From Psammoneis japonica (Eukaryota), in assembly GCA_008632985.1 (NCBI GenBank), contig QPGO01000189.1:1-64000 (forward strand): 64,000 bases of DNA. Direction: 5' to 3'. Numbering within the stretch: position 1 is the first letter of the stretch; each line of letters begins with the position of its first letter. This document shows positions 11,082 through 42,884 of this stretch, piece by piece. The notes below the pieces were generated by a model. It saw only the letters and a program-made list of their open reading frames with translations. It was not told the DNA's origin and ran no database searches. A program made the translations under genes and the position numbers.

Positions 11082-14000
11082 AAGATTCTAATTTACCCTG
11101 TAGTCGACTAACGTAACGAAAAAATGGAAAGAACCTATTGTAGAAGTAGAAACATGCCATGTATGCTGGATGCGTTCATTTGAACGTCATGATTTCCATC
11201 TACAGTACCCGTGTCCCGTGTGCGAGCACTGGCCCACACTACATACAGTACAGGACTCCCACTGCTCGAGTGTGTGGGTGGGCCTAAGTAATTCTAAAAA
11301 CCGTTAACGGCCGTTACTATGTAATTTGGTAGTATTTTGGTACTCTATATATGAGGCATTTATGTAGAAATTACGTACGTACAAACATTAGGGGAAACGA
11401 GCGTGGAGAAGAGACGACGCGAGCGAAGCACGAGCGAAGAGACCGACAATGACACAAGTGCCGGAGAGAGACGCAAGGAGAGCAATCCAACGATATTGCA
11501 AGGGCGCAAAGAGAGGAAAGATCTATTTGAGTTAGTACCATATCTTCAATAAAAAGAACAAAGCAAGAAGACATTGGCATGCACAAAAAACTTGCACAAA
11601 GAAGCACGGCACCAGCGCCTGCAAAATGACCACATCTGCGGTGACGTGGAACAACACAAGGAGGTGAGAACATACTTTTTCTACAAATACAATGCAACAA
11701 CGAGCAAATGACCAATACAAACTCACCAGTAGGGTCAAAACTTGGGGTGCCTGGATCGTCAACGGCAGGAGGAACGACAGATGGAAGAGAGGCAGCCTGG
11801 TGGTTCCACGGAGCAGGACGACAAAAGCAGGCGGTAGATCGGCGTGAGCAATGGTAGAAAGTTGGCGCTTGGGCTCGAGTGACTCGTCCAGTCCATACAA
11901 GTCGTGGTAGTAGCTTAGAGAACGGAGGCAGCGCCATGGTAGGACGGCATGGACCGGGACAGAAGCAGCACGCCATGGTGGAACGGTGACGAAGCCAAAA
12001 ACGGTGACGGCGGCGGTGTAGACCCATGGACTTCGATGTCCCCATCTTCGATTCCTATACATCAAGATACGGGACAAGGAGGTTCAAGGTGAGCGCCATT
12101 GCGAACGAGAACGGGGAAAAAGACGCATGGTTCCACGAGAATCAGAACTCACCACATTTTGAGTCATTCTGACCCATTCTAGAGCCAGGACTCACTCACA
12201 TAGCACGACCCAATGGCGTGTAACACTATCAAGCAAGGTAGGGGTCGGGAGGCGGTGTCGTACCGGTCAAATCGGCCAAAAGCGCCATTGTCGGAGGGAG
12301 CGGTGGTTGTTTCGATCGGCCGCTCGGAAAAATTATGAGCCATCAACTCGACCGCGCACCGTTCGGAGTCGCACAAAATTTCTCGGTACAAAATGTACAC
12401 AAATGTACGTCAGTATAAAAATCGTGTATAAGGGTTGTAAGTAGAACCTTTACTGTCTCTATGTAGACTACAAGGATTCTGCCGTTAAACTGTGCCAATA
12501 TGTGTAATTCACGTGGTCGATTTGAATCAATCCCACCAACGTTTTTGAATTTCGATCGTAATAACGGCTTTAGGTGCTGAGATGAATATAATGTGTAAGT
12601 TTGAATCCACCCTCCTCGCTGGGGTCGTTCTCGCCATTGTGCAACCCGCCTCGTCGGTCTCCACCTCGTTGCTTGGACCCTTCTCGTCGGGTTCGGCGGG
12701 TCCTCGTCGGGCTCCATAAGTGCACAGGGCGCGTACCTGCAGCACACGCGTGCGCGCGCATACAGTGCCGCCAAAATCTAGAGGGCCCCACCGGCAAAGC
12801 ACATCAACCTGCTGCACAGTGCAGCAAGACGAATGTGCCACACTTCTTTTCGTTTTGCTCAGCAATGGCCATGAGCCCTTCATTGGCAATCTGGTGCTCC
12901 CATCATGCCAGACAGTGTCACAGTCACACGAAGCATGATGTGTGGTGCCTGTGTGACCTTGCAAGTGGCCGCCACTCTTCTTGCACACACGCGGACATTG
13001 AAACAATGCAGAGGAGCGTGCCGCCCTGCCCCACACATGCCAAAAACAAAAACACAGACAGCACGGCAACTGAGACCTGCATCCAAAAAAAAAACCTTCT
13101 GCACACACCCCACTTTCAGACCCAGTGGTCTGCCCCCCCCCCCTGTGCAACATCTGGTGGGTCTTCTGACCCAGCTTTGCCAGCGGCAGTCAATGTTGTG
13201 TGCACGTGGTTGGTTTGTGTGGCATCAGCTGTGCCCATCTCATCCATCTCATGATGGCAGCCAGAAAACAATCCAGGGCACTGCCATTGTGCCAGACAGT
13301 GTGGTGCCATGGCCACACAAAGAGCAGCACACATGAAGAGGCAGCAGTGCACAGCACTCGTGTGACCTCGCAGGTGGCTGCCACACCTTTGCATTTGCTT
13401 GCAAAAGTTGCCCCCAAACATGGACAGCGTTGCAAGCAAGCCCAACCTGCATTTGAAAAAACTGGCATTCCCCCCCCAGCCTGACTGGTGTGCCAATGTT
13501 TCACAAATGAGTGCTTTTTTCAATTTGCGCAACACTCGCGTTCAAATGCACTCATCTTAAAAACCAGCATTAAAAAAACTGAGCGCCTCATTCATTCTCC
13601 AAGGGGAACAATTTTCTCAATGAGAAGAAAGGCTGAAAGCAGCTCCAGACCCCCAACATGTCAATGAACATGACCGCGTGCAGCAGTGGCTGGTTTCCAC
13701 CTCATGGCAACAAAAACAGCACCACTGGAATCACCACATGTTGCTCAGTCTGCAGGCTCCATTTCTCATTTGATCAGGTCAGACTCATGGACGTTTCAGG
13801 GACTTTCAATTGCAAAGTTTGTGCAACCTCTTCTCAGGCCATTTTGGCTCCCTGCTCTTCAAGTGTTCAGCATGAAAACTGCACCATCAAATGTTAAATC
13901 AGCCACATCTAAATCATGGTGAGTTGCACAAAAAACCAGTGTCATTCCACTCAGAATTTTGCAGCGGTTCAATGTGTCAAGTTGTTTGAACATTTTTCAA

Positions 14001-14639
14001 CTTGTGGACATTTTCACAATGAGTTTAAAAGTGCTCTTTGTGTCAGGCAAACAGCGCACACAGTCAGATTCATTGAGACACAGGTCCTTGGTGAGGCAAT
14101 GTTTTCGCAATGTGAGTTTTCATTTGCATCATTTTAAATCATCACGACAAACACAAATTCCAACTCCAGATCAATGACCCTTTGTGTGTTGCCATGCTTT
14201 CAATGCAATGAAAACAGGAAACAAAGAGCAGCAACCACCTGTTTGGGCACACTCCAGTGGGGCTTGTTGGTGCACACCCAAGCATTTGCAAATGAACAAT
14301 GAGACATTGCTTTGGGTTTGCAAGTTCATTCCCAAGTTAGTGACTGTGTGAAATCTGTGTCTGCACACACAAAAATGTCCATTTTTTGCACTCTTTTGTT
14401 CACGCATGGCTGGAACACCTTGCCTGCTGCTCCACACAACATCCAGCCAGGTCTTCCATCCTGGGCATTGGCAGAGGTCAATGCTGTGTGAGCACAGTTA
14501 GTTTCATGTGCATGATTTTAAGCAGTCTGGCTGTTGTCCACTGGGCAAGTCATTGGCTGGCTCTTCTTCAGATTTTTTCATGACTCTGCTCCTGTCAGAG
14601 TCATTCCCAATTCTCACTGCATGACAAGATTGACTGTTT

Positions 14640-14940
14640 TGCCATGTTGCAGACTCTTTCCATCCTAAGACAAGATGAGACCAAACAAATTTGTTTTCTT
14701 TGCTTGTTGTCAGAGCTGAAACTTGCTGTGTGAGAGGCACACAAGAGCTGCAGCTGTCCTGAAGTGCAGAAAGTTCTTGCTCAATTGATGCTGCCTGATG
14801 GCAGCACACTGAGAGGGCAGGAGATTGGGGTCATGTGACATGAAAGAATCAGGAGAAGAAAATGTTGACTTGAGTGACCCCTGGCATGTGTGCATTTGCA
14901 CATCATCTTTTGCTCTCTGCACAAAAATGAGTGCAAAAAG
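14640..14940 (+). repeat. Dispersed repeat, copy 1 (partner at about 34710-34985)
   Basis: Shared ordered blocks: catcc(t/c)aagacaag, cagagctgaaact, cctgatgg..gcacactgagaggg, gggtcatgtgacatgaaa.aatca.gagaa, tgagtgacccc, catttgcac. Confidence 0.8.
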
Positions 14941-16135
14941 AGCAAGTGAAATGTGCCAGCACCACACACCACACCAGGGCTCATGCCCAGAGCCAAGCAA
15001 CTCTTTTCAAACAAAACAGCACCAGGTTTGATTGGCTCGCCATGGCACCAGTTGAGTGCACAAATTCACCATTGTTGCAGCACTTCTCTTGGCCAGGGCA
15101 CAAAGCCAAAGTGGGGGTGCATCATGCTCTCACACATTGTGAGGGCTTGTGCAAACAGCTTCCTTGTTTCTCTTCACCACATCTTTGCAATGTCTCACTC
15201 ACCTGGGATGCATTGCTTGCACTTGCCATGGCACCATTTGAGTGCACAACTCCGCTCATGCTGCATTGCTTCTGCAAAAAGGTTGCTGCTTTTTTTCATT
15301 GCATGGGCTTTCTTCCACTGTCAATTGCCTGTGCACTGGCATGAGTTTGCTTGTTTGGCGCAAGTGCATTGTTGTCATGCTGGTGTGTGAACAAAAAAGG
15401 GCTCAAGATTTTGGAAGATGCCCAAGGGCATCAGGGAGTCAGGCTCTGGTGACCAGCTCCCAATGCTCTGTGCAGAGCAATCTGAAGGTTTTTTTTTCAT
15501 TTGACACAGGATTTTGACATGGAGTGTGGCTGCACACTCCAAAAAAAATCATTTGAGCACGCGAGAGAGCGGAGAGAGTGCGGCTGGCAAGAGCTGTGCT
15601 CTGCAAATGATTTTTGTTTCCTGTGCAGGGATTTTGCCACTCATCTTGTCTGAGGGCACTGATGCAGCAATGTTTCCCATCAAGAAATGACCACCACAGC
15701 CAGCCCTCCTGCTGCATGGCTGTGCCCGGCACCTTCCCACCTGCACCCAGCCCATGCATGGCCCACCACCACATGTCTCTCAGGGGGCGGCTGGGGGGTG
15801 TTTCAAAGCCAGCCAGTCCACTCAAACCAATCTGCAACTTTTCTGAAGTTCTCTGGTTCTAACTAAGTAAAGAGTGAAAGAGCCCAAAGGCAGAAGGTGG
15901 ATGGAGCAGAGAGAGGACGATTGAGAAGGGCCTGGTTGTGCCTCTTGTTGCGGACTTCTAAAAGGCCTAAGATGCCGGGAGCATGGGAGGAACAGGCTCT
16001 ATGACGTCCTAAAAGGCCTGTTGAGAAAGGCTGTGTCGTTTTCACTTTGCGTGGTCTTGGTCTGTGGCCGCTCATTTTTTTTTCTGCAGTCTGCAGATGT
16101 CTGCATCTTCTCTCTCCATCTCACAACGTAACAAC

Positions 16136-18160
16136 ATGGCAAACGAGGAATCGGCACAAGCAGACGAAGGGACCAACAAGGTTGTGCCGGCAACCATTCT
16201 GTCTGGCTTTCTTGGTTCGGGGAAAACGACGCTCCTTCAGCATGTTTTAACCAGCAAGGAGCACAAGTTGAGAATTGCTGTGATTGTCAACGACATGGCC
16301 GAATTGAACGTTGACGCACAAACCATCAACCGGACTCCCTTTACGACGACGACGACGACAAGTGACGATGATCAGCCTTCTTCTTTGATGGATGATGAGC
16401 CCGCTGTGGTTAGAACAAAGCGAGAGGTCATTGCGCTGGAGAATGGTTGCATCTGCTGCACCCTTCGCGGTGATTTGATTCGAGAGATCCATCGCATTCA
16501 GGAGTTGGGTAGCTTTGACCACATCATCATTGAATCCACCGGAATTGCGGAACCTCAGCAAGTCGCAGAGAGTTTTTGTGTTGATCCAGAGACGTTGGCT
16601 CTGCCATCGGGTGGCGAGTCGAGGGAAATGGTCAACATGCTAAACAAGCACGCCCGATTGGACACGTGTGTCACGGTTGTGGACTCAGCAAATTTTCCGC
16701 AGCACCTGTGTTCACTGAGAAGGTTCAAAGAGCTTTTCCAGGATGGTGTTGATGGTGAAGAGGGTGAAGAAGGCGAGAAGAGCATCGCCGAGCTCATGGT
16801 GGAACAGGTAGAATTCGCCAACGTTGTTTTGCTGAATAAGATCGATCTAGTTTCCCCGGAACAAGTGACCGAAGCGAAACGATTGATCACTTCGTTGAAC
16901 CCAAAGGCACTTGTTGTCATGGCATTCCACGGAAAAATGAACGTCAAGGATGTTCTTAACACGGGGCTCTTTGACATGGAGGAAGCCAAGCAATCACCTG
17001 GATGGTTGGCATCGCTTCAGGATGGGATCGGTGCGACTAATGGCGAGGCCGACGAATGCGGTGTCGTTTCCTTTGTTTACCGTACCAACAAGCCCTTCCA
17101 CCCCCAGAGGCTCAACGACAACTTTATCTCCAAGATTTTGCACTTTGCGGGAGAGTGGAATGGCAAGGGGATCCAGGACACCACTGAAAAGGTCAAACGA
17201 AAGTATGTGGAGGATCGGCATGGATGCATTTTGCGGTCCAAAGGCACCATGTGGATTGCTGGCCGCGATGAACACGAGCACAATTGGTCACATGCGGGTC
17301 GTATCATTGCCATCAATCCCATCTCTCCTTGGCATTGTACCGTCCCTGAGGAGAAGTGGGATTACGACACCGAACAAGAAAGAGAGGCGATTCTGAAAAC
17401 GATTGAACAAGACAGTGAACATGGAGATCGACGACAGGAGATTGTCTTTATTGGGATCGACATGAAGGAAGATGAAATTCGAGGCGCGCTGAATGCATGC
17501 CTGTTGACAGACGATGAGATGGCAGGGCATGTCTTGGATTTGCCGCTTGGAGCATACCATGACACTCTCCCTCCGCTTCCATTTTATTGTTACGATGTCG
17601 GTGCAGTCTTGGCCACTGTCCGCCCTCGCCAAAATCACCACTTCATGATCCCCACCAAATTTAAGCTCACTCTTTCCAATTTGGCGCTGATGCCAATTAT
17701 TGACGAACAAGATCCGCCAATTGCAATGGTTCGCGTGTGGCTCGACAAGTGCTCCGGAACGAGCCAACATGGTGTGCTGCTAGCGACGCTCTGTCCTGAT
17801 GTCTGTGAGCAGCATTCCCTGTGTCTGCCGCTGCTTCACTCAGAAGGAAAGAATTCTGAACCGTCCGAATTTCGTCTTCGCATCGATGCAATTCCGTTAA
17901 AACGCGGACAGAAGCGAAAGCACGACGACCGCGAATCCGATGCCACGGTGAATGAGTCTGGCATTCAACTCCATGTCATGGGCAATGTCGAACCTGTCCC
18001 GTGCAATGCTGATGACGATGACAACAATGCCGATGATGACCACGACGATGATTGTCCCGATGGTGAATGTGACATGATCTCGGCGGCCGCGCAACATTTT
18101 TCTTTCGGGTGCTTTTGTGGGAAAGAGCCCTGTCGAAAACTTTGCCAACTCCCAGAATGA
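16136..18160 (+). CDS. CobW/COG0523 zinc-chaperone GTPase with a C-terminal nucleoplasmin-like domain and acidic tail; open frame but hypermutated, possibly a pseudogene
   Basis: Motifs VPATILSGFLGSGKTTLL, IAVIVNDMAELNVD, LENGCICCTLRGDL, IIESTGIAEP, VTVVD, EQVEFANV.LLNKIDL, FHPQRL, ILRSKG and GDRRQEIVFIG. ATG at 16136. Confidence 0.9.
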   Translation: MANEESAQADEGTNKVVPATILSGFLGSGKTTLLQHVLTSKEHKLRIAVIVNDMAELNVDAQTINRTPFTTTTTTSDDDQPSSLMDDEPAVVRTKREVIALENGCICCTLRGDLIREIHRIQELGSFDHIIIESTGIAEPQQVAESFCVDPETLALPSGGESREMVNMLNKHARLDTCVTVVDSANFPQHLCSLRRFKELFQDGVDGEEGEEGEKSIAELMVEQVEFANVVLLNKIDLVSPEQVTEAKRLITSLNPKALVVMAFHGKMNVKDVLNTGLFDMEEAKQSPGWLASLQDGIGATNGEADECGVVSFVYRTNKPFHPQRLNDNFISKILHFAGEWNGKGIQDTTEKVKRKYVEDRHGCILRSKGTMWIAGRDEHEHNWSHAGRIIAINPISPWHCTVPEEKWDYDTEQEREAILKTIEQDSEHGDRRQEIVFIGIDMKEDEIRGALNACLLTDDEMAGHVLDLPLGAYHDTLPPLPFYCYDVGAVLATVRPRQNHHFMIPTKFKLTLSNLALMPIIDEQDPPIAMVRVWLDKCSGTSQHGVLLATLCPDVCEQHSLCLPLLHSEGKNSEPSEFRLRIDAIPLKRGQKRKHDDRESDATVNESGIQLHVMGNVEPVPCNADDDDNNADDDHDDDCPDGECDMISAAAQHFSFGCFCGKEPCRKLCQLPE

Positions 18161-21059
18161 AATAAATAAAAAAAACACATTTTAAATGTCATTCAAGAAG
18201 CAGTTGCCCGGCTGGTTCAGATCAACCTTATGACAATGAATCAACGAAAAGATCCCCAATCCCTGAACCGTAGCACAAATGTCAAACATCATCATTGGCA
18301 CCGTGGAGCCACTCCACAACAGCTCGCTCTCCAACTTTTTGCAACAGCAAATGCAACAATTGAAGTGTTGTTTGATGCCACACTCATTGCAGCTCTGCAG
18401 ATCCCTTCTTGTTCTTTCTTGTTGGTGCGCATGTTGTCACTGTCACCAGTTTGCAGGGAGCTCCATGTTGTTTGTCAAGATCTCAGTTGTGGCCTTGCAA
18501 CTCTCATCTGACATCTTTGAGTTGATGATTGCCGTGCTTCTCTCTCTCATCATTTTGCAAGCCCATTGAGCCTGCCTCTTTTTTGATCTTTGTGGAGTTT
18601 TTGGATCAGAATCTCCAGAATCTCTTGGCACTTTCCAGGCCACAGGAAAATGCAGAATGTCAGCCCACCCCCTGCTGCCTTCATGTCCCTGAAGCCACAG
18701 AAACTTTCCTGAATGACACTTGTGCTAAAATGATTTTTGATTTGGGCCCCATTTTTTGACAATGAGAAACACACCCAAGCCAAGGATCATGCTCGTCAGC
18801 TGTGCCAGGGCTGGCTTCAACCTCCATGAAATCATTCCCCACATCAAATGGAAATCTCACAAGAACAGGTTGAGCATTGCACTCATCTTCTTCTGGCAAG
18901 CTTCTTTAAGGTGAAAGCTCTGTTGGCAATGATTCTCCATCTTGTTTTTTGCATCAGATGTTGGGCTGCAAGACCCAACTTGCTCTCAAGGCCTGTGAGA
19001 GGAGAACAGCCAAGCAGCCAGCACACAGCACATGTGCCCTTTTCAACCATGATGTGAAAACCAATTGTTTGGACTGGAATGAGTTTTCTGTTGAGCTGCA
19101 CACACCCAAATGAGTGCACTTGTCTTTGCTGATGTTGGCTTCACCAATCCACCATTGACCTTCTTTGTGCAAGCAGACGTCAAGCCCCACACACTGCTTT
19201 GCACAATGCCCAGTGGGTGTTGGGGACAAACCCCCACACCTCTCCTCTGCATGTGAAGATGTTCTGCATGTGACCAACCAAGAACTTGTGCACCCCCCAA
19301 ATGACAGCTTGTGTTGTGTGGTTCTTCATTGGGATCTGCATCACCCAACACTGTGCTGTTGGCTGGCACTGTGCTGCATCTTTTGCATCCAAAGATCAAA
19401 AGGATGTGGCTCCTGACAACACGCCCGTTGGGAAAGTTGAGAATTGCAAGGACCTTCAAACATTTGGTTGTCATCTTTGGGTCTAAAGACCCAGTTGGTG
19501 CTGTCGTACTAAGTTTCAGCCCAACTCTGAGAAAGGCATTTTTTGTCATCTTCCAGATGCTGCAAAGAGCGCTGTTTGGTGCGATCCTCCTGAAACCTCT
19601 TGGCTCAAGTTTGCCAAGAGTGCGCACATTTCTGCCAGGGCATGAGTGACCTCCCTGCTTGTGAGAAGGACCAACGCTGTTGGGCCACTCCACCTTGTGT
19701 GGCATCCATGCACGGTTGATGCAACTGCAGCAAATGAACACACAGCTTGGCTGTGGTCATGGTGCTTCTGCAGCCACTGTTTTGCGCAGTTGCTCATTGG
19801 AGATTGGCTTGCCCCCACAGCAGCCACCATGCCTTGCAAAGGTGCTGCTGCATCCATTGCTCCCACAACTGCAACTTTTGTCAGCACCATGGATGAAGAA
19901 ATGTTGCCAACCCCAGCAACTTGCATGTGCCAGTTGCTGTCACACCTGGCTTGCCAGCTGCAATGACAGCAACTTTGCCTTTTCAATCATGCGCAAACTC
20001 TTCCAAGAGCTCCAATGTGCTCACAGGGCCCAAGTTGAACCCAGCTCGCACATCCACCACCGCCAGCTGTGACGCTGCAGATGCACCTCAAGTTGAAAAT
20101 GTGCCAGCTGTGAGCACCCCAGCAGATCTTGTGAGCTGCCAGTTTGCTGAATGCCAAGTCTGCTGTGTCTGTTGTGGGGCCTGCAAGTGCACCATCGGCT
20201 GTGATCAGCTTTGTTTTGCTGATGTTGTCTGCCAGATTGATGGCTTTTTCCACCAGTGCCTGAGCCAACTCACTCTCCAGACCCCAAGGTTTTTGTTCCT
20301 GACTGCTCTGTTGTCACATGCAGTGGGAGTGACTTTTGTCTTGTGTGGTTGTGGTGAGATCACATGATGCTTGATGATGCAGTCACTGCTCTGTTGGTTG
20401 CCAAGTCACTTTGCATTTAGATTTTTCACTCAGATGTTGTTGGTTTTGGGGGGACACACAAGGCTGCTGTTGCTTTGCATGTCCAAACAAGACAAGTGTC
20501 AGAGTGTCAGCTGAGAGAGAAAGCTGCAAGCCACAAAGAGCACTCTCAAATGGCAGAGTGTCAGCTGTGAGAGAGGGCCACAAAGAGCACTCTCACCTTC
20601 TGCTGCCCAACCTCCATCCTCCACTCAGACTGCTCTTGTTGTTTCACATTGCACTTTTCACAGTGCTCTTGATCCACCAACTGTTGCCAATGACAACAAC
20701 CCTGTGATTTGCAACCAGGAAAAAGCAACGCACAGCAAAGAGAAAGTGTGCAAAGCTGATGGATGTGTGCAAGATTCTGCCAACAAGATGCCTCATTTGA
20801 CAAACAAGTTTTGAAAACTTTGTTTGATGCTCATCTGCCATTCATTGACATTTTTCTGATGCCAAGTCATTTTTTGAAGTTTTTCTTTGACCAATGTGCT
20901 TTTCAGAGCACATGACATGAGCCCCCATGCCTTTGGGTGGAAGACCCTGCATGCAGAACTGGTGGCCCCTGCATGTTCACCCAAATTTTGACTGCTTGTT
21001 TTCTTGTGCACACACAAAATCTCAACAAATGTCTGGAACTTTTGACGCGGTTTTTGGCC

Positions 21060-30011: not shown

Positions 30012-31744
30012 CGCGGCTTACGGCACTCGGCTTGCGGCTGCAGAGAAGAGATGGAAAGAACAGCTTGAGAACACATGGCGAAGAGCCAACACATGGCACA
30101 AACGAGATGCTGTGAACCGCAGGGACATCATCATGGCGGCTGATGGCTGTCGGTGGGAGGGAACGCCGCGGACAGGAGGGTTACCATGGCTACGAATCGT
30201 GGTGAATGGGCCAATGGGCCGTGTGGACGAGTGCGAGAGTGAGTGCCTGCGCGCGATGTGCGCGCGGCGACGATGCGCTCGCAAGGGGTGCGACGTGCGA
30301 CCACACCATTCGATTTTAAAAATCAAATCGATCAAGTCGGACAATTCAATTATGTCGGAAAAACTGTGCCGTTTGAGCAGTGTGGTGTGAAGAGACATTT
30401 CTCTTTTCCTGTCCAAATGACCGCTGAAAAACAACGCAATTGACATGATGCGACCGACGATCATGACGACACAAACGACAGAATGAAGCAGCGGGCTTCC
30501 AAACCATTCAAAGGCAAAAGACATGATGCCAACTGATGACTTCTCTGGTGCAGGAAAGCAGGTGGGGAAGCTGTCCCATGGCATGGCGCCCGTGGAGGGG
30601 ATGACTGGATGAACACGCGTGTGGTGGTGGAGTTCATTTTTGTTGTTGACACTGCACAAGAATCGCTGCGAAAAGATGCAACGAGATGGCTGGATGCACA
30701 CACGTGTTACGAAAGCATAGAAAAGAGTTTGACTTGCCTTCGCGCTTCGCGGTGGCAGTGTGTCTGCCATTTGTTCTTCTTTCGCAACCTCGGGAATGTG
30801 GCGATTTCAAAATTGTTGTGAGTCGAGATGTCGGGATTTTTTCTGGATCTGTCTCTGCGGTGACTTTCGCATAAAACAAGCAGGGCCACACAGGCCTGCA
30901 GATGAGCATGCCAGATGCACCTGCCGTTCAGCAAGTTTTGCGTGAGCTCCCGGAACCAGGGTTCGCATTCGTCTTCTTCAATGGTCATCGTTGCAATCTT
31001 GCCATCCCTGGTTAAAATCTTATGTCAAAAGCAACCAAAACAAATACAATGACATTGCAAAATGTCTCCAGGCACATGTCTTGGAAGGTCTTCCTCACAA
31101 GAGACATCATGCTCCATCTTCTTCAAAGGCAATTATTGCAATCTTGCAATGCAACAACAATGCATGGGCAGGTCGAATTCTTTTGAATGGTCATTCATGC
31201 AATTGTGTCCCCAGCAATCAACTTTGAACATCTCGGAAGGTCATTCTCAATGGGAGGTCATCCCCGCCCCATCCATGAACAAGCCAAACATTTGTCACAG
31301 CTGCCTGTTTTGCTGCAGGCTTTTCATCTTGTTGCTTCCCAGTCGCAGTGCAAATTGACACATCTGCTGCAAAAATGGTGGAGCAGCCTCCTGCAGCCAA
31401 CCAACCCAAGCCGCAAACTTGGCTGCTGCCAACGCGTGCTGCCAGGCCCGCCTGACCTGACAGGATGAGCCCGGGCTCTCAGCTGTGCCAGTTTGTCAAA
31501 GAGATCCCCACGGGGCATGTGCAAAAGCTGGGCTCTTTTCATTTGGGCCAACCATGCACAAAAACAACCAGCACGCATTGGGGGGGGGAGGAGAGCAGGG
31601 AGGGGGCGGCGGCTCTCTCCAGCTGTCTCTCTGGGTGGGGGATCCAGCAGCGCTGGAGTGCAGCAACAACATGTTTGATGCATTTCAGATGTGGGTGAGA
31701 ATCTGTGCAACATCAGGCCAACGGCATTGTTGTGTGTGTGAGCC

Positions 31745-32337
31745 CTGCAGCAAGTTTGTTGGTGGTGATGAAAATGACATCGCCAACAGAAAAAAGGCAA
31801 TTTTGCAAGTGCACAAACTCGCCCATGAATGAAACACATTCTCATTTCTTGTTTGCTCCAGTGCACTTTTCAGACATTGAAAAATGCGCTCAGTGCGTTG
31901 TTGTTCCTGCAAGTGCATTGAACAAAAAGTCCTGGGTTTCACAAAGGAGGGAGTCATTGGAGCAATTCTGGGGAAGAGCACGTGCAAAAACGTCTGTGTG
32001 AAACATGCGGCGCATGACAAAAAATGATGGCTGTGTCACATGCCAGCACTGCAAGCACCCACCCAGGGTGGAGCACATTGTTTTTTGACTGTGTTGTGTG
32101 CCACACAAAACTGTGAAATTTTGGGTTTGCTTTGTGTCAGTTTGCAGCACAGCACCATCAGGCTGTCTGCTCACAAAACAACTTTCAAGAAGCAGCTCTC
32201 TTTTGCAAGGACATGCTCTTTGGCATCTGCAGAGAAGCTTGAGTGTGGAGAGGTGCAGCAGCACTGCAAAATTGCCTCTTTTTCTGTTGGCAATTGTTGA
32301 TTTGTTCATCATCACCTGGCTGACAATTTTGCTGCAG
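31745..32337. repeat. Degenerate inverted repeat (arms about 31745-31811 and 32262-32337), possible old MITE or foldback element
   Basis: The reverse complement of ctgcagcaag...ggtgatgaa...ccaacagaaaaaaggcaattttgcaagtg matches cactgcaaaattgcctctttttctgttgg...ttcatcatcacc...ttgctgcag. Confidence 0.65.
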
Positions 32338-34709
32338 AGAACTCCGGGGGGGGGGGGGGGGGCAACATCACAGGGCAGTTTGGTGATCAAGAGAAATCAC
32401 CTGTGCTTGATGCACATCATTTCTGCCATGCATGGGCATTTCCTTCAAAAATGAAGAAAACATCCAGCCTGTTTTTGTTCTCAGAAATGGCCAAATAAAA
32501 AATTCTGTTGACTCTCCACAACACAGGGCATGTGACACAATTTTGAAAAAAAGAGCACACACAGAAATGTGTGCATGCACCACACAGTGCATCATGGTCA
32601 ACAAACATTTTGTCACAGTCCAGTGCTGTGAGGTCTCACCTGGAGCTGCTGCAGTGTGTCGGGCAAGTTCTGCAGTGTCTGGCTTTTGCCATTGCAGAAA
32701 AAGCACACCAGCATGGGCACCACACTCGCCATTTGTGTCATGGTGCCCAGGCTCAGAACCACACCCTGCGAACTGCAAATGAGAAGTCAAAGTGGTGCAA
32801 GTGACTGTTTTTGAAACAACAGAAACATGTGCTTCCAATTTGAACAAATGGGGTCAGTGTGGAGCTGTGCAACAAAGCAAAGGAATGAGCAGTGCATGCA
32901 GCATGTGGCTGTTGTTTCCACTGTGGTGCTGTCAGCCTTTGCTGCCCCATGGCCATGTCCAAACTCTTGGCAGTTGCAGCACATGACTCCACCAGCAGCT
33001 TCTGTCATTTTTTGTCTGACTTGTGTGAGAGCCAACCTCTTGGGTGTCTTGACCTCAACCACAATTTCCATCATGCCCACAACCATGCTGATGGAAGGAG
33101 GGGAAGGCCCTGCTGGTGTTGCTGAGCCCAATCAACTCATTCAAAATGTCACTGCAGCAGCTGCAAAATCTGGCTGTGAAGGCATTCTTTCTAGCTGGTT
33201 TGAGTGACATCAAAAACTGAGGCACTTTCCAGAGAGTGTGAGAACTCTTTGATGGACCAAGGTCCAATGAAAAAGCACTGCATTTTTGCAGCAGGTCTTT
33301 GGCAAAAGTTTTGCTGCACAAAAATGCTGCCACCTCCTGTTTGTGGCAGCTCAGCAATTTGTTGTGAATGGGAACAATGCCAAGAACAATGCAACAACTG
33401 TGGAGACAGGAGCCACCCACACTGTTGAAGATGTCCATCACTGTGCAATGTCTCAAGCCAGCCATGGCCTTGATTGGCCAACACAGCAGCACACATGTCT
33501 GTCAAAAAACAAAGCCCTGAAATCTCTTTGGGAAAACAGCCTGTTGTGGTGTTTGGTCATCAGAGCTCTTTTTTCCTCCACTCCCCAATGCTGTTGTGAG
33601 ATTGTGGCTGCACTTGTAAGATTTGCTCCCTTCCAGAGCAAGTGGTGAGAATGAGACACCACCCATGTTTTCTCAGAGAGCCAAAAACTCCAGTTCATAA
33701 CATGGTGGATGTCTTGGCATTTCAACTCAGCAGCAAGCTCTCTCAACCAAAGATGGCAAATGGCCCATGCTTGGTGTCATTTTTCCCAGTCTTGCTCTGC
33801 TTTTTGCCCAGTTTGGGCCTGATTTCTCTGCTGTCTAGAACACAGATGACAGACAATGCCGTGTTGCTGACCACAAAAAAGAAACAATGAGGCCTCACTC
33901 TGAGTGTGCTGAGCATGCATGAAAAGCATTTGAGCAGAAAAAGAGGCCAGAGAAAGACTTGTTTGTGCTTGACAAGATGGCCAAATTGCTTGTGCTGCTC
34001 AACTTTGCTGCTCTGGAATGGACAAAAGGACCTTTTTCTTTGTCACCACATCTCGCCCCACAAGTCTTTGCCTTGTTCACAGAGCAGGTCAGAGGCAACT
34101 CTTGAAAGTTCTCTCTTTGATGTCTTCTGCAAGAGCTGGGGCTGATGGCCCTGGCAGCAGGGAGACAAACTGTGGCACTCAGATTTTGGAAGGTGCTTTT
34201 TTGAACTTCCATCTCTGCTGTGCTCCACAATTCCCCAACAATGTGAAACATGCCAGCACTGGTGCCGTGTGCTGGCTGCCGCTGTTCACAACCAACTCTT
34301 CCTCTTCCGCTGGGCTTGCAAGTGCAGGGGGGGAGCAGGGGGTGGCACATTTGTCTGGAGCACATGGATTGTGAGACACTGATGCCAGCTCTCAAGTGCT
34401 GCACAACATGTGGGGCCAATGCAGCATGCACCATGTGCGGCAGCACTGCAGCACTCACCAAAAACTGGGCCCCAGCCCTTTTTTGTCAGGGGGGATTTCC
34501 CAGTTTGTTGCAAAGTTCTCCCCCTGTGCTTGCAAGCCCACCTCTGCTCCTCCTCCAGCACTCAGGATCCAAGTGAACATGCATGGTTTGTGCAGCCTGG
34601 CTGCCTGTCAGGTTGAGTCATCAGCCAGCCATTCTTTGGGTTCTCTTTGTGACCATTGGAGTCATTTGCAGCACTCACTTTGTTGCAAGGATGACTGCTC
34701 TTTGCCCTT

Positions 34710-34985
34710 TTGCACACTCCTTCCATCCCAAGACAAGGTCAGGCTTGCTGAATCTGTTTGCTTTGCTTGCCATCAGAGCTGAAACTCATTTTGTGTTCTG
34801 GGCAAAGCTGCGCACTGCCCCCCATGGGACAGAAAGCTGTTTGCCTGATGCCACCTGATGGTGGCACTGAGAGGGAAGGATTGCAGGGTCATGTGACATG
34901 AAAAAATCATGAGAAAACATCAATTTGAGTGACCCCAGCATGCACACATTTGCACGTCCCATGTTTTGTTCTGCGCACAAAAGCA
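34710..34985 (+). repeat. Dispersed repeat, copy 2 (partner at about 14640-14940)
   Basis: Same ordered blocks as copy 1. Confidence 0.8.
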
Positions 34986-37900
34986 GGTGCAGCAGAAGAG
35001 CAAGCAAAGTTCTTTGTCAGGACTCATGTGCCTGGAAGCAAGTGGCTCTTCAAACCAAATGGTGTGGGGTCTTGTCACCCCACCATGTCACCAGCTGGTG
35101 GCACAACTCTGTTTGTGCTGCACATCTTCTGGCCAGGATGCACAGCCAGCAAGTGGGGTGCTTCATGCCAGCTCTGCTGCTCTTGCTCTGACACTGTGAA
35201 AATTTGCAAATGACCTCCTCTTTCACAACATTGCATCAGAGTTGCTCTTGTCTGGGATGTGTTGCTTGTGTGCTCATTGGTTGTTGACATTGGCAGCTTT
35301 TCAACATGACATGGACTTGTTTGACTGCCTGTGGCAATGGTTTGCTTGTTCAACAATGCAAGCTGCGCTGTTTTGTGGCACAAACGAAGGGCTGCTGAAG
35401 ATTGTGGAGGATGTGCTGGAGCACTGGAGAATCACATTTTGATGGCCAGTTCCTGCTCTGAACAGAATGAAATTGCACAGTTTGCCACACTCAGCAAAAT
35501 CACTTCTTTTTCAAACTCCTTTTGCAAAGTTGTCATTTTTTGACAAAAAAGGTGCTGGGTGCCTCAACACACAAAACATTTTGAAAATTTGCTTTTCTGG
35601 CTGGGCTTTCTCACAGGAGCTGGGAAAGAACCTGGGTGGCAAGTCTTGTGTGAAGCTGTGCCACAAATTGTGCAAAAAGCACTTGAGCTCATTCAGCCAG
35701 AAAAGCACTGGGTTCTGTGCTTTCACAAATGGTCTCTGCAAAAAGAGCACAAAAAAGGCTCTCTCAACTTCTTCTTTCACAAAAATGACTCCCTGTGAGA
35801 GCCACAGCAAGAACAGGCTCACAATGAAGAACATGTTCCTTTGGCTCAAATGATGCATGCTGCAGCTTTTGTTGCACACATCAGGGTGATTTTGCTTGAA
35901 GAAGATCCTCGGCACAATTGTGTGCAAAACAATTTCCAGGCAGTTGCAACATTTTCAACTGTGCATGTCACTCCAGGTTTTTTGGCTGTGCAACTGTGGG
36001 TTTCTGGAACAAAAATGTGAAAAAGTTTTGGCAGGCTGTCATTGTTGTTCTTGGGCAAAGGTGTTGTTTGCCTTGCAAGTGTGAGCTGATCAAAAACAGT
36101 GATCTTCTGCCCACCCACCCATCGCAGAGCCCACTTTGGCTTTTTTGTCAGTTTTTGTTTTGTTGGAAGTGGAAACTGTGAAAGACAGCTTGTTCTTTCA
36201 GAAGTGACTTTTCACATGCAAACTCTTGCAAAACACCCATGTCCATCTTGACTTTGGGAGCTCAAAGTCTTGTGTTGTCTGACAACCATCACACACTGGG
36301 CACATGTGAAGTTCTTCACATTGACTTTTCTGTGATTGAGGAGGCTGTGCAAGTCACCACTGTGGCACTCTGACTCCATTTTTTGATGGCTTTTTCAATT
36401 TTGGCCCCATCACAAAAGCTCAAACACTCAATGTCATGGAAGAAGAATGGCACAAGGTTTGTGAAAAGAAATGATGGCAATGTGCACAAACACAGCAGAT
36501 GCCTGGTTGGCTTCCAGTGGCATCACTTTTGTCCTTGTTGGTGACTTAAAAGATGCATTGTGGAAAGCCAATTTAGACCAGCACTGGACCAACATCCACA
36601 GAATGTAAAAACTGACCTCATTTGATGCAGGCCAATTGTTTGGATTGTGAAAAAAATTCACACTCCACTTTGTTCCATCAATCTTTGTTTCCTGCCCAGG
36701 GACTTGATCATTCACCCACATGGTCTGATGTGCCTGGCAACACCATGACCACCGCGGCTTTCATCTGGCAACAGCACACCCAGCACCACCCCACCTGCAC
36801 AATTTTGTGCATCATCCATTGTGCAGCACATGAGAGCACAGCACTGGCAGCCCAGCTTGGACCAGGGGGGTGCTCTGGCCAATCTGCACCTTGTTTAAAG
36901 TTCTTCAGTTTGGCAGAGCCAGAGAGTCACACAAGGATGAGCAGCAAGAAGACCAGGGGGCGCATTTCTTTGCCGCCAGCAAGCAGTGTAAAAAGTGTTG
37001 CCAAGCAAGCAAAAAGCCAGTCTGTGCTGGCAGTGTGCATGCTTCATGCTGCATGCTGGTGCAGAGCTGTGTGTGCACAGGCAGGAGCAAGGGCTCACAA
37101 GTCTGTCAGGGCACACACAAGCTCCAGCACAAATCTGGACTGTGCCAGGCTTCTGATGCAATGAACTTGACATTGTGAGAGGACACCCTGAAATGCTCAA
37201 GAGTTTGATTTTGTGGAATTTCTCAAAAGTTCTGTGGAGGATGGACAACAGATGGCCATTTTTCTGGAATTTTTGCTTTTGGTGCACACATGTGTTCAAA
37301 AGTGAAAACACAGAATTTGTGCATTGCAGCCATGGAACTTGCACTGTCAAGATTGCCCAACACTTGCCAATGTGTGCTGTGGTGCCCAGTGTGCATGGCC
37401 CCATGAGGGAGACATGCCAAGGAAACTCAGCAATTGGCCGTTGACCTCTCCTGTGGAGTTCTGTGCACCAATCTTGTCATGCCAATTTTTTGGGTGCAAT
37501 GTCACTCATTTGTTTTCTGCTGCTGCTGTGTGCACCCATGGCATGAGTGCCACAGTCAGTTGAGCACATGATTGACTCAAGTGCGAGCACTCAAGTGTGA
37601 GCACTGACAGCACTGATGTTGTGGACATGTGTCAAAAACACAGGAGAAGGACTTTGAGCTTGGAAATTTGGCACATGGCAGGATTTGTGCACATGATCCC
37701 AAAGAAAGATTTGCCCACAGGCTGAACTCACCTGGTGTGTGTCCTCACACTGATGCCATTGAATGCAGCGCTGCACAAGTTGCATGACCAGGCCACACCC
37801 ATGGCCACCTTGAGCACCACAGAGGAGAGCTGCCCCTGCCTGCCTCAGCTGCAACCAGAGCCTGCACATGAGTGATCTCTGAAGTTTTGCACTTCAAAAC

Positions 37901-39039
37901 ATGCTGTGAGTTGGGCCAAGTGCCCCTGTGCAGTGCAAGACTTGAGCAAAGAAAAGGCCAAATGCAAGCACCAGCACAATCTCTGGCATGCACTGATTGG
38001 CTGACATGGCTGGCCTTCATCACCGTCAACTCAACATCAGTTGCTTGTTGTCCAAAAACACAAGTCAACAACATGCCTGCTTTCTTCCAATTTAAAATGA
38101 GTCAAGCCACCCTGGGGATTCTAAAAAAAGTGCTGCTCACTTTGTCATTTTTCCTTGATTGTGGTCTTGAGTGGAAGTGCACCCTTTTTTTGTGCGGTGT
38201 GCTGCTTTTCAAAGCATGTGTGGCAGAGTGGCTCATGCTGGCAGATTCAGCAAGAAGCAGCATCCTCATCCCCTTGTCCCAGTGCAAGTTGTGCTGGCTG
38301 TCACCATGGTGCCAAGAGGAAAATGGCAGGAGCTGCTTCCAAACAATGAACCAACAAGCGCGGCAGGCAGTGTGATGAAGAAATGTCTTGGAGCATGGAC
38401 ATTTGTGAAATGAGAGTCTCATGAGCACACCTGCCCCCACCCCCTGCAAGTGCTGGCTTGTTGGCGTGCACCACACATTTCTCACACAACAACACCCCCC
38501 TGGCGGAGTTGATTGTGAATGTTTTCTTGGGTGTGGGCTCATTTTGTGAAGAAGCAGACCAAGCTTTGTGGGGAACAGATCCATGCCATGGAGAGTTGGC
38601 AGTGGAAATTTGTGGATGGTTTGGGCTCAATTGCCTTTGACTTTGGTGTGGCAAAGCTGCATTTTTTGTTTGCTGTGGTGCACCCACACTGGCAGCACCC
38701 TCACAAACAAACAACTGGTTGGGCTGCTGCCAAAGAAGAAGTTCCGCCAATTAAAAACACAGAGTGACAGACTGCAGATGAGGGCAAGGGAGACCAGCTG
38801 TTGTCTTTGACTTTTCCCCAAGAATCAACAATTCACTCACACCGTGGAGATGAAAGCCAAGATGGAGTGCAACATTCTCAAAAGGGCCAAGATGCAAGAA
38901 GCACCACAACGCATGGACAGGAGGATGGACCTGCATGAGAGATGGTGCAAACAAGCTCTGTGATGTCCTAAAAGGCCTTTTCCACACTGAGACAGGCAAT
39001 GCATGGGTGGGCTTGGAGGCTGCCATTTGATCTGTTGTC

Positions 39040-40900
39040 TGTTGGCCGCTCATTTTTTGCATCTTGAATCTTCTTTTGATCTCACAATGAAAGAACAACA
39101 TGGTGAATGACAAGGAATCATCAGCACAATGACAAAGAGATGACCAAAGGTCATGCCTGCAATGACTCTGTCAGGCTTTCTTGGCTTGGGGTAAAATGAT
39201 GCTCCTTCAGCATGTTTTGACCAGCAAGGAGCACAAGTTGAGAATTGCTGTGATTGTCGACAACATGGCTGAACTGAGTGTAGATGCACAAACAATCAAC
39301 TGGACTCCCTTTGCTGCAACAAGTGACAATGAGCAGCACTCTTCTGTGACTGATGAGCCCGCTGTGGTTGGAACCAAGCAAGAGGCCATTGCACTGGAGA
39401 ATGGTTGCATCTGCGTGCTTCACAGTGATTTGATTTGAGAGATCCATCGCACCCACCTGGATGGCTGGTGTTGCTTCAGGATGGAATTGGTGCAACCAAT
39501 GGCAAGGCTGATGGTGTGGTGTTGTTTCCTTTGTTTGCCATGCCAACACACCCTTCCACCCCCAGAGAGGCTTGACAACTGCTTCATCTCCAAGATTTTG
39601 CACTTTGCGGGAGAGTGGAATGGCAAGAGGATCCAGGACACCACTGAAAAGGTCAAACAAAAGCATGTGGAGGATTGGCATGGATCCATGTTGTGGCCCA
39701 AAGGCGCCATGTGGATTGCTGGCTGTGATGAACACGAGCACAATTGGTCACATGCGGGCTGCATTGTTGCCATCAATCCCATCTCTCCTTGGCATTGCAC
39801 CATCCATGAGGAGAAGTGGGGTTGCAACACCAAACAAGAAAGAGAGTCAATTCCGAAAAGAATTGAGCAAGACAGTGAGCATGGAGATCAACAACAGGAG
39901 ATTGTCTTCCATGGGATCAACATCAAGGAAGATGAAATTTGTGGCACATTGGATGCATGCCTGCTGACAGACAAGGCAGTGGCAGGGCATGTCATGGATT
40001 TGCCGCTTGGAGCATGCCATGACATGCTCCCTCAGTTTCCATTTTGTTGTTGCAATGTTGGCACAGTCTTGGCCACTGTCTGCCTCAACAAAACCATCAC
40101 TTCATGATCCCCACCAAGTTCAAGCTCACTCTTCCCAATTTAAGGCTGTGACGCCAATTGTTGACAAACAAGATCTGCCAATTGCAGTTGTTCATGTGCG
40201 GCTCAACAAGTGCTCCGGAGCAAGTCATCATGGAGTGCTGCCAGCGATGCTCCATCCCAACAATGTCTGTGAGCAGCATTCCCTGTGTCTGCCACTTCTT
40301 CACTCAGAAGAGAAGAATTTTCTGAACCATCCAAATTTCGTCTTTGCATCAATGCACTTCTGCCAAAGTGTGGACAGAAGCAAAAGCACAACAACCACAA
40401 ATCCGACACCATGGTGAATGATTCTGGCACTCAAGTCCATGTCATGGGCAATGTCAAACCTGTCCCATGCAATGCTGATGACAATGACAACAATGCTGAT
40501 GATGACCACAACAATGATTGCCCTGATGGAGAATGTGACATGATCTTGGCAGCCGCACAACATTTTTCTTTCAGGTGCTTTTGTGGGAAGAGCCCTTTCA
40601 AAACTTTGCCAACCAGAGCCAAACAAGTGCACAAACAAGCAACTCAAAGAGTGGCATGTGTGCTTCCATGCCAAAAGGCTTTTACAATGCCCTGCATTGT
40701 CCAGCCCAACCTTCTCCCAGAAGCAGTTGCCCAGCTGGTTCCGATCAACCTCATGAATGAACAAAAGCACCCTGATCCCTGAACGGCAGTGCAAATGTCT
40801 CAAGTGTCATTGTGGGCACCATGAAACCACTCCCACAACATCTCCCGCTCCAAGCTTTTGCTGCATCACAAGGAAACAATCAACAAATTGTTTGATGTCA
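39040..40900 (+). pseudogene. Second, heavily mutated CobW-nucleoplasmin-like copy with an internal deletion of about 500 bp and shared flanks
   Basis: Aligns to about 16065-18370 (LLQHVLTSKEHKLRIAVIV, ALENGCIC, ISKILHFAGEWNG, HVMGNV.PVPCNADD). At about 39452 it jumps from the equivalent of 16495 to about 16995. It has stops and frameshifts. Confidence 0.93.
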
Positions 40901-42884
40901 CATTCGCCAACAAACCTGCAGAAGTGAATGCCATCTTCAATGGTGCCTCTGTGCCTTTGGGGGGTTCCTCTGTGCACTCAGCATGTGCATCTGCCGCGCA
41001 TGCAAGAAATTGTGTGCAAGTTCTTTCTGCACCACTTTGGTGGTGGGAGTCCTGCATTCTGCATCAGCCAGAGTGATGCCAGCTCTTTTTGCACTTCTTC
41101 CTGCCAGCTCCAAGTGCTTTTTTCAAGGCCACAATGTCCCCATGATTCAACAAGCAGTTGGCGCTGATCTTGTTGAGCTGCTTGTTCACCCCCAGGAATG
41201 CTTGGCTCTGTTTGCTCATGTCAGCTGCTTTGCAATTTTTTGGCAAGCTTGGTCTTTGTTGCAGCCAGCTGCTTTGGACAAGCTGAAGCTTCCTCTGAAG
41301 AAGGCTGGCATTTTTGCTCTTCCAGAGGGGTTTCAAAACCCCTCACATTCAGCACCCTCCTTTTTGTGTTGCTCACAGACATCTGGAGCTTTCAACTTTG
41401 GAGAGCCTCTTGGGGTCCTCATTGCCAGGGCAACATTGTTGTTGCTGGGTTGGTTTTCTTCTTGCTCCTGCTGGAAGGCCCTTTGTCAAAATTGAGCTTG
41501 TTCAATTTGTTGCCAGTCAACACTTTTTCCACTTCCTCTGCTTGGCACATCATTTGCCAGCATGACGGGCAGCCAAGAGTCTGGCTGTTGAGGACTTGCC
41601 ATTGCCATCACTGGGCTTCCATCATTCATTCTCTCAGCTTTTTCTTTGTGCTGCACAGAAGCTTTGCATGGCCTGCTGACAATTGCTGCTGTCATGGCGG
41701 GTGCTGCAGGAAATCAGGTGCCATGTTCTCTCAGCTTGGGTTGGTCTCTTTTGTCTGAGATTGGTGGTTCAAACATCCAAGGCACCAGAAAGTCAGTGGA
41801 TTGAGATCAGACATTTTGTGTCTGCCCATCTTTCCACTCCCCTTCCCCCATCATGTGTGTGTGCTGCAGAAAGAACAAACAGGCATCACAGACACCAGTT
41901 TCCCAGCATTTTGCCGGCAAAACAATCATGCACAAATTGTGTGCAATTTTAAAAAAGAGATGAGGTTGGATCAAAAAATGCAACAGAGACACACAAAAAT
42001 GCAACACAACATGACAAGCGACAATGGCAACCATGTGGGGATAAAAAAACAACATTCACACTGATTTCGGGCATGCTGCAGTGACAACATGAACATGACA
42101 AGTGCAGCTGATGCAATGTTTGGCTCACTGGTGTCCATCTGATGGCTCCAATCGATCATTCGAGATGATGTCATTGTCGTCAACATCCCGCATTGTTGCT
42201 GCACATGGTTCATGTAGAAAATTGCAAAAAAAGCCGTTGACAATGATGCTCTGAAATCAACCACAAACTGCATCCAGAGTCAACATGGGCACATGTCTGT
42301 GCTTGTCACGCGCCATGAGACATGTCCAACGCGTTTTGTCTCACAAAAGTTGGTCAACAGCGTCGCCGGCGGCACGCCATTGTCAGCATCGAATGCCGCA
42401 CAAAAAGCACGGGGACGACAGAAATTGACTTCTTCTGTCGCACTTGTCTGTCCATCACCCATTTGTCTCGTGTTCTGCGCGCAGTGTGTGCTGTTTTTTG
42501 TTTGAGAAATTGCCCCTCATTTTCTCCCAATTTTTGGATCTGAGCTCACCAGATTTGCTGACTTTCAAGCACCAGCTGCTGGCAGTGGTGTCTCTCATTG
42601 CTTGGAGAAGGATGCAGACAACAACAACAAAAAATCTTCAAGAGGAGGCAACTTTTTTGCCAGAAAATGACAGCAGCAGACTGCGGGTGGCTCTCCTCTC
42701 TTTTCAACTCACTCCTTCCTTCCTCATTTGAGCCACACTGCCCTGCATGTGATGCTGTGATGGGCATCAGAGTGACACACGCATGACAGCCAGGCATTTG
42801 CAGTGACGCAGACAGCTCACAGCCTGAACTGACCAGGCAAAACGGAAACATTCTACTAACTCCCATCAGATTTTACACAGACTA

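Follow-up and report, generated by a model that had tools for sequence, protein, structure and literature searches.

We analysed a 64,000-nucleotide stretch of Psammoneis japonica DNA (NCBI GenBank assembly GCA_008632985.1, contig QPGO01000189.1, positions 1 to 64,000 of the forward strand), hereafter the window, with a focus on a gene of the CobW/COG0523 family at 16136..18160 (+), hereafter copy 1. The gene is an uninterrupted open reading frame (ORF) of 674 codons, with an alternative ATG at 16097; its CpG content is normal and its TpA content is depleted. An earlier note, made from the letters of this DNA, had read copy 1 as a duplicated gene part-way through inactivation, with its frame still open, in which TpA had been lost without loss of CpG. 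The frame is indeed open, and the window does contain a second copy of the gene at 38950..40922 (+), hereafter copy 2. Copy 2 is not an intact paralogue, however, but a dead pseudogene that carries a deletion, frame-shifting indels and a TGA stop, with both CpG and TpA eroded.

COG0523 proteins are marked by a P-loop of the form GxxGxGK[ST], a CxCC metal motif, an ExxG switch and an NKxD motif. By its domains and by these motifs, copy 1 is a COG0523/G3E GTPase. Pfam cobW (PF02492) matched residues 18-260 with 164.1 bits (cut-off 20.7), and CobW_C (PF07683) matched residues 310-456 with 62.6 bits (gathering cut-off 22). The translation contains the P-loop GFLGSGKTT at 24-32 (GSGKTT at 27-32), GCICC at 104-108, ESTG at 133-136 and NKID at 234-237, and the corresponding columns are invariant or almost so in the alignment of homologues. 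These two domains and four motifs are common to copy 1 and to the G3E GTPases CobW, YjiA, ZigA and ZNG1. Copy 1 differs from COG0523 proteins generally in its length: at ~640-670 aa it belongs to a long form, whose C-terminal extension is also found in the pennate diatom proteins. Among NCBIfam models, the zinc metallochaperone equivalog ZigA (NF038288) was the nearest, with 371.5 bits against a cut-off of 600; copy 1 is ZigA-like but falls short of a ZigA equivalog.

The closest of 7984 database relatives were long-form proteins of the pennate diatoms Seminavis, Pseudo-nitzschia, Nitzschia, Cylindrotheca and Amphora. The top relatives covered at least 90% of the query at an identity of at most ~52-53%, close relatives being absent from the comparison. 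In a tree of 58 sequences, copy 1 branched deeply and by itself next to the raphid pennates. A metagenome scan for long-form orthologous DNA recovered mostly bacterial ZigA-like loci and a single long-form relative, L001, with 42% identity. Contigs of the DNA run X1 matched copy 1 without differences, and variant contigs matched copy 2; the run gave no allelic information. Taken from its sequence, the product of copy 1 is most likely a putative long-form, ZigA-like COG0523 metallochaperone GTPase of a diatom-like alga.

The observation made in the earlier note was confirmed with strong statistics, and the composition of copy 1 was as described there. The CpG-containing strings that it quoted are present, and the observed/expected (o/e) ratio of CpG in the ORF is 0.95. 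The TpA o/e ratio is 0.22, and TpA is low in all three codon phases, with 6 observed and 37.1 expected in phase 1-2, 6 and 31.9 in phase 2-3, and 13 and 46.7 in phase 3-1. For comparison, TpA o/e is 0.42-0.64 in nine ORFs taken from where the window has a normal composition.

The window was split into 128 bins of 500 bp, which were classed by CpG and TpA o/e. Fifty-seven bins were normal (CpG ~1.0, TpA ~0.6), 20 had lost TpA only (pooled CpG 0.84, TpA 0.18), 37 had lost both dinucleotides (pooled CpG 0.15, TpA 0.04, TpG 1.85, CpA 1.84), one had lost CpG only and 13 were unclassified. GC content was near equal across the normal, TpA-only and doubly depleted states (0.47, 0.51 and 0.49), as is expected if CpG and TpA both become TpG/CpA. 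Copy 1, together with the segment that is clearly homologous to copy 2, coincides with a TpA-only island at 16001..18500 (CpG o/e 0.66-1.01, TpA o/e 0.14-0.30). The island lies between a left doubly depleted block at 13001..16000 (CpG o/e 0.0-0.35, TpA o/e 0.0-0.18) and a right one at 18501..21000 (CpG o/e 0.04-0.24, TpA o/e 0.0-0.07), and no Pfam domain was found in either block. Copy 2 lies in a doubly depleted 11-kb block at 31001..42000, as delimited by the 500-bp bins. Further TpA-only stretches at 21-23 kb, 24-26.5 kb and 28.5-31 kb hold unrelated ORFs with TpA o/e of 0.18-0.27 and low Tyr content, and no second copy of these neighbouring TpA-poor, CpG-normal ORFs was found within the 64-kb window. 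The 20 TpA-only bins, against one CpG-only bin, support the earlier note's claim that the two losses are separable, TpA loss being the wider and more complete of the two.

TpA depletion was graded with distance. In successive 500-bp bins outward from a doubly depleted block, TpA o/e was 0.24, 0.38 and 0.48, and then ~0.5-0.56; TpA o/e correlated with distance from these blocks (Spearman rho 0.31, p = 0.003). CpG o/e was 0.74 in the first bin and had reached 0.97 by the second. TpA loss thus reaches ~1-1.5 kb beyond the doubly depleted blocks, and CpG loss at most 0.5 kb. The flanking bases also mattered. The ratio of TpA-only to normal frequency was 0.08-0.13 for ATAC/GTAT, ATAT and GTAC (RTAY, where R is a purine and Y a pyrimidine), and YTAR contexts were the least affected (TTAA 0.78, CTAG 0.55, with CTAA/TTAG also among the least), the underlying tetranucleotide counts being small because they come from only 10 kb of TpA-only DNA. 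The same order of RTAY over YTAR was repeated in doubly depleted DNA. CpG loss in the pooled bins had contexts of its own, being weakest at GCGC and CCGC/GCGG and strongest at TCGA and ACGA/TCGT.

Copy 2 is a duplicate of the gene and its immediate flanks, 85% identical to copy 1 over 1164 nt and 77% identical over 450 nt. Codons 121-286 (16497-16994 in copy 1), and with them ESTG and NKID, are missing from it, several indels shift its frame, and at codon 116 CGA has become the stop TGA. It nevertheless retains a frame of 208 codons that begins with ATG and measures 222 codons from stop to stop. The two copies differ by 263 substitutions over 1667 aligned positions, and these differences have a strong direction. 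At the positions of 102 CpG dinucleotides of copy 1, copy 2 has CA at 48 and TG at 33, and has kept CpG at 11. At the positions of 20 TpA dinucleotides of copy 1, copy 2 has CA at 10, TG at nine and CC at one, and has kept none; copy 2 contains only two TpA in total. With so few TpA left, copy 2 has no power to time the TpA loss of copy 1 directly, and this approach was rejected. At 146 of the 1667 aligned sites the copies differ in ways that are of neither CpG nor TpA type.

After collapsing the bases to purines and pyrimidines, the 3' part of the copies was 96.5% identical, indicating that nearly all of the divergence consists of transitions. The two halves of the copies have diverged unequally: 16108-16500 is 77% identical to 39069-39455 (89% collapsed), and 16994-18150 is 85% identical to 39453-40614 (96.5% collapsed). 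This suggests gene conversion, a two-step history or a composite origin of copy 2. Farther upstream, the stretch 14506..15462 (+) matches 34577-35455, upstream of copy 2, with 84-88% purine/pyrimidine identity, the likeness being clearest in the collapsed sequences. The two longest pieces of this match scored 345 and 109 bits, against best scores of 62-72 bits in five shuffled controls; the 89-nt middle piece, at 54 bits, lies under the shuffle range. The upstream flanks of the two copies are far more diverged than the genes, and ~3.6 kb of extra DNA separates flank and gene at copy 2.

The loss of TpA is visible in the protein. Because Tyr codons are TAY, a TpA change yields His (CAY) or Cys (TGY). 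We aligned copy 1 with 57 homologues, namely the proteins of at least 580 aa among hits P0002-P0059, and the three examples of His or Cys in place of Tyr that the earlier note had quoted (FDH, ECG and EHG) were borne out, the third more weakly. Codon 129 (16520..16522, +) is CAC (His), in a column with Tyr in 56 of 57 homologues; codon 308 (17057..17059, +) is TGC (Cys), where 55 of 56 have Tyr; and codon 429 (17420..17422, +) is CAT (His), where 35 of 57 have Tyr and nine have His. Across the 10 columns in which Tyr is the commonest residue, copy 1 has Tyr at two, His at six, Cys at one and Ser at one, and in this respect it departs from its own subfamily. The resulting 70% of His/Cys at Tyr columns was reached by none of the 57 homologues when each was tested alike (mean 9%, maximum 44%). 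Substitutions of the CpG type were no more frequent than usual. Only one of 21 Arg columns in copy 1 has become Cys, Trp, His or Gln, against the seven of 10 Tyr columns, and this is ordinary in view of the homologue mean of 5.5%. The Tyr content of copy 1 (0.89%) is the lowest of the 58 sequences (1.23-2.49% in the 57 homologues), and its Cys content (3.26%) is the highest (homologue maximum 2.96%).

Orthologues with the same His/Cys residues, which the earlier note named as counter-evidence to its reading, were not seen: the homologues lack the His and Cys of copy 1 at columns 129 and 308, in a comparison whose nearest member is only ~52-53% identical to copy 1. A control gene of the window, encoding an ADP-forming acetyl-CoA synthetase (1673-3871), has 15 such columns, of which 11 retain Tyr and none has His or Cys, so that Tyr loss is not general to the proteome of the organism. 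Among the other TpA-poor ORFs of the window, that at 28683-30011 had no homologue among proteins of 243-774 aa for the same Tyr test, and the remainder are repeats or fragments.

These data bear on an explanation that needs no special mutator, in which selection against UpA in mRNA or codon preference removed TpA, and the His and Cys residues are lineage-specific and possibly adaptive in a metal-binding protein. Normal genes of the window also under-represent TpA (0.42-0.64), and His and Cys are metal ligands. Column 429 has His in nine of 57 homologues. In addition, the best solved relative, Escherichia coli YjiA, has Arg at the equivalent of 129 and Trp at the equivalent of 429, so that these Tyr residues typify the subfamily and are not universal in COG0523. 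However, the depletion also affects non-coding DNA and both strands, with o/e of 0.04 in blocks without genes, and it scales with distance from the depleted blocks. TpA became CA or TG, and nothing else, at 19 of 20 sites in copy 2. Moreover, the control gene keeps its Tyr residues in the same organism, and L001, the sole long-form relative with DNA (n = 1), has TpA o/e of 0.61 (CpG 0.85). We therefore consider this explanation very improbable.

Whether copy 1 is itself decaying can be judged from the changes that each copy has accumulated since the duplication. We used the consensus of the 57 homologues as the outgroup and compared the columns covered by both copies. At 92 columns conserved in at least 90% of the family, both copies deviate at six, copy 2 alone at 20 and copy 1 alone at none. 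With the threshold lowered to 70% (152 columns), both copies deviate at 18, copy 1 alone at one and copy 2 alone at 34; at 50% (213 columns) the numbers, in the same order, are 38, three and 38. The contrast of 0 with 20 private deviations indicates that, from the split onward, copy 1 was kept almost as it was and copy 2 degenerated. Along its whole length, copy 1 keeps 154 of 162 columns conserved in at least 90%; its eight changes (Y129H, I231V, Y308C, R318N, C372M, L443M, R553C and E584D) are inside the range of the homologues (0-25).

The Tyr replacements themselves appear to be older than the duplication. Copy 2 has the same residue as copy 1, reached in the same direction, at each of the four testable codons, 308, 362, 400 and 429 (TGY at 308, with TGT in copy 2, and CAT at the others); the stretch with codon 129 is deleted in copy 2. 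By comparison, none of the six Tyr codons that remain in copy 1 survives in copy 2, where five became Cys and one became His. Given this bias of copy 2 towards Cys, we calculated a chance of ~0.004-0.06 that independent mutation would produce four concordant changes. The replacements at 308, 362, 400 and 429 thus most likely predate the duplication, as judged from the aligned copies.

Erosion did not stop there. At 14 sites one copy has TG and the other CA, which implies an ancestral TA or CG that each copy lost on its own. Codons 17 (Ile in 48/57 homologues) and 292 (Val in 29/57) are former TpA sites according to the homologue residues. Almost all homologues (56 of 57) have Arg at codon 553 (17792..17794, +), which reads TGT (Cys) in copy 1 and CAT in copy 2; this indicates a former CpG site (ancestral CGT) that decayed separately in each copy. 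Together, the TpA-type changes at codons 17 and 292 and the CpG-type change at 553 indicate that erosion of copy 1 continued after the duplication. The latter change, at a conserved Arg, also means that the earlier note's description of copy 1 as free of CpG loss is nearly, but not strictly, true.

The same observations allow a model along the lines of the earlier note to be weighed, here with a repeat-triggered process that resembles repeat-induced point mutation (RIP): copy 1 would be one of two duplicates undergoing inactivation, with TpA lost first, CpG due to follow and the open frame a leftover. A second copy does exist and is fully mutated, three near-invariant residues of copy 1 are altered, and the erosion of copy 1 went on after the duplication, with no fewer than two changes of the TpA type (codons 17 and 292) and one of the CpG type (553). 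TpA loss is also equally strong at non-synonymous and synonymous phases. On the other hand, copy 1 has no private deviations at the 92 columns, against 20 in copy 2, and it shares four Tyr replacements with copy 2, in the same direction, despite the five Cys to one His among the losses of copy 2's own. It has kept six Tyr codons and 20 TpA where copy 2 lost them all, and the other TpA-poor ORFs have no second copy in the window. These results do not support a duplicate caught part-way through inactivation, and we regard repeat-triggered inactivation as unlikely.

A related possibility is that copy 1 is already a non-functional pseudogene, which looks intact because little time has passed and stops are rare in TpA-poor DNA. 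Y129H, Y308C and R553C fall at columns conserved in 55-56 of 56-57 homologues, and long spurious ORFs are plentiful in the depleted blocks (62 frames of at least 110 aa). Without TAA and TAG only TGA stops a frame, so ORF length is no evidence for a gene in doubly depleted DNA. In the blocks at 13-16 kb, 18.5-21 kb and 31-42 kb, frames of 110-240 codons overlap in large numbers on both strands. Against a dead copy 1 stand its GTPase and metal motifs, all intact, the retention of 154 of 162 conserved columns, and the absence of private deviations at 92 columns despite 146/1667 differences between the copies that are of neither CpG nor TpA type. CpG is moreover kept in every codon phase, unlike in all the clearly dead DNA around. 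The marks of a processed or decaying pseudogene, a disrupted frame or relaxed constraint at conserved columns, were not seen in copy 1: its frame is open, and of the 92 columns none deviates in it alone, compared with 20 in copy 2. We regard pseudogene status as unlikely, to the same degree as repeat-triggered inactivation.

Based on these findings, we favour, with a probability of roughly 60%, the reading that copy 1 is a working parental gene in the flank zone of hypermutated DNA, and not a decaying duplicate. Copy 1 would form a 2.5-kb island between silent blocks whose CpG and TpA were converted to TpG/CpA by two processes. The first, from CpG to TpG/CpA, would be the usual deamination of methylated cytosine and would be limited to silenced DNA; the sparing of CpG in all codon phases of copy 1 fits an unmethylated, active gene, and we would expect copy 1 to be expressed. 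The second, from TpA to TpG/CpA, amounts to A-to-G on either strand and would be a distinct, context-dependent process, strongest at RTAY and weakest at YTAR. It would run to completion in the silent blocks and leak ~1-1.5 kb into adjoining DNA, copy 1 included, where it may have turned conserved Tyr codons into His and Cys codons and also removed TpA at synonymous and between-codon positions. Its restriction to A-to-G and to TpA, its flanking-base preference and its sharp regional distribution are in character for an enzyme-driven process, plausibly one of the adenine-deaminase type.

Several observations weigh against this reading. The three near-invariant residues replaced in copy 1 (Y129H, Y308C and R553C) could impair the protein, and the open frame is weak evidence, since TpA-poor DNA cannot form TAA or TAG and a frame of 208 codons persists even in the dead copy 2. 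The search for a second copy spanned the 64-kb window, and an intact paralogue, or extra copies of the neighbouring ORFs, may lie elsewhere. The differences between the copies that are of neither CpG nor TpA type fall 31/25/43 on the three codon positions, and this lean towards the third position is not significant (p = 0.078). Only two of the 58 terminal branches in the tree are longer than that of copy 1 (0.586; median 0.26), and this long branch is ambiguous in a tree without a close relative. Leakage explains neither the TpA-poor island at 24001-26500, which sits at least 3 kb from the nearest depleted block, nor the sharp edges of the depleted block at 47501-48500, which has no TpA-poor margin.

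The depleted blocks contain few recognisable domains. Pfam returned no credible match for the 62 frames of at least 110 aa, save CobW_C in copy 2 and a P-type ATPase fragment, and no domain typical of viruses or transposons could be recognised. A pair of overlapping frames at 47.4-47.9 kb matched PRIMA1 weakly (E 0.0013 and 0.0082), with scores far under the gathering cut-off. A fragment of a P-type ATPase at 6581-7186 (-), recognised by its HAD hydrolase domain (E 2e-13), lies in DNA where TpA o/e is 0.0 and CpG o/e 0.54-0.70; it adjoins a doubly depleted block and is probably another eroded gene remnant.

Other features of the window are less closely connected with copy 1. The ADP-forming acetyl-CoA synthetase at 1673-3871 (-), of 732 aa, is ~70-73% identical to many Desulfobacterales/Thermodesulfobacteriota proteins, and only three JGI proteins are closer (87, 79 and 68%); judged from its homologues, it looks like a bacterial gene acquired by the algal lineage. 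An open frame at 1-858 (+), which runs off the start of the window, has TpA o/e of 0.22 and CpG of 0.54-0.65; it had no Pfam match, and we take it to resemble the RNase H end of a Ty1/Copia polyprotein. At 21462-23037 lies a Pro/Ser/Thr repeat gene (Pfam PT repeat, E 2e-24) with internal tandem repeats, TpA of 0.21 and 0.2% Tyr, and a long antisense ORF (22171-23037) lies inside it. Three ORFs at 45347-46018, 49849-50904 and 52149-53537 (all -) look alike by eye, each with a signal-like N-terminus and Lys/Gly-rich and Pro/Thr-rich stretches. They have normal composition and no Pfam match, and may represent a family of diatom cell-wall proteins.

The two processes proposed here can be compared with known systems of sequence erosion. 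The decay of methylated CpG by deamination produces the same change from CpG to TpG/CpA that is seen in copy 2 and in all the depleted blocks. Unlike the TpA process, it leaves TpA untouched and has spared copy 1. In fungi, RIP converts C to T, mostly at CpA, which raises TpA, and it spills into adjacent single-copy genes. The likeness to the present case is that dinucleotide-specific transitions ruin repeated or foreign DNA and leak into its flanks. The difference is that TpA is here destroyed and GC content unchanged. With TpA falling to 0.04-0.18 and CpA rising, a RIP spectrum of the fungal type was rejected. As for a trigger by duplication, copy 2 is heavily mutated, yet the TpA-poor neighbours have no second copy in the 64-kb window.

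A closer parallel was reported in 2026 from mutation-accumulation lines of Bigelowiella natans: of the 231 mutations that arose in two integrated viral regions, 230 changed A to G or T to C (bioRxiv 10.64898/2026.01.13.699255). The preprint assigns all of these changes to TpA, with a rate ~1000 times that of the background, and proposes a DNA adenine deaminase resembling ADAT2 (bioRxiv 10.64898/2026.01.13.699255). As described there, the process turns TpA into TpG/CpA and does essentially nothing else, is regional, leaves TpA-poor clusters rich in CpA and TpG, and has silent or foreign-looking DNA as its main target. The present window is alike in its changes, in their regional extent and in the clusters that they leave, with TpA converted only to TpG or CpA at 19 of 20 sites in copy 2 and a TpA o/e of 0.04 in the depleted blocks, and its main target also seems to be silent or foreign-looking DNA. 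Host genes are here also among the TpA-depleted sequences.

There are differences as well. B. natans is a chlorarachniophyte (Rhizaria), and the homologues of genes in this window are from diatoms. The preprint's main text makes no mention of CpG or of diatoms, whereas the fully hit blocks described here have also lost CpG. The targets reported there are integrated viral regions, whereas the depleted blocks here hold no viral or transposon domain recognisable by Pfam. Relative to what that text describes, a conserved host gene has been hit here, with Tyr replaced by His or Cys, and a preference for RTAY over YTAR is visible. In B. natans the rates were measured; the present case offers footprints.

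By analogy with B. natans, we tentatively propose, at somewhat less than even odds, that this lineage, or diatoms at large, own a genome-defence mutator of the Bigelowiella kind. This would be a DNA adenine deaminase acting at R-T-A-Y, independent of cytosine methylation, that changes TpA to TpG/CpA in silenced DNA; it would be spread across the Stramenopiles-Alveolata-Rhizaria (SAR) supergroup, and its spill-over would remove Tyr from adjoining host genes and so measurably alter host proteins. If so, the window would display all three stages, from normal through TpA-only to fully eroded DNA, within one stretch. A search of the openly accessible literature turned up the Bigelowiella preprint and no account of TpA erosion in diatoms. 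Should the footprint be that of an active process, TpA-directed hypermutation would gain a second, phylogenetically distant case, in an ecologically major group. There are practical consequences as well: TpA-poor DNA carries long spurious ORFs, and in genomes of this type Tyr-poor, His/Cys-rich proteins may be mutational products and not adaptations.

Compared with the text of the Bigelowiella preprint, the present data add a clean split from CpG decay, constraints on the enzyme that follow from its preference for certain flanking bases, and collateral Tyr-to-His/Cys damage at near-invariant sites of a conserved host gene. The kind of process would thus be one already known from Bigelowiella, and what appears to be new is its occurrence in another supergroup lineage and its visible effect on a conserved host protein.

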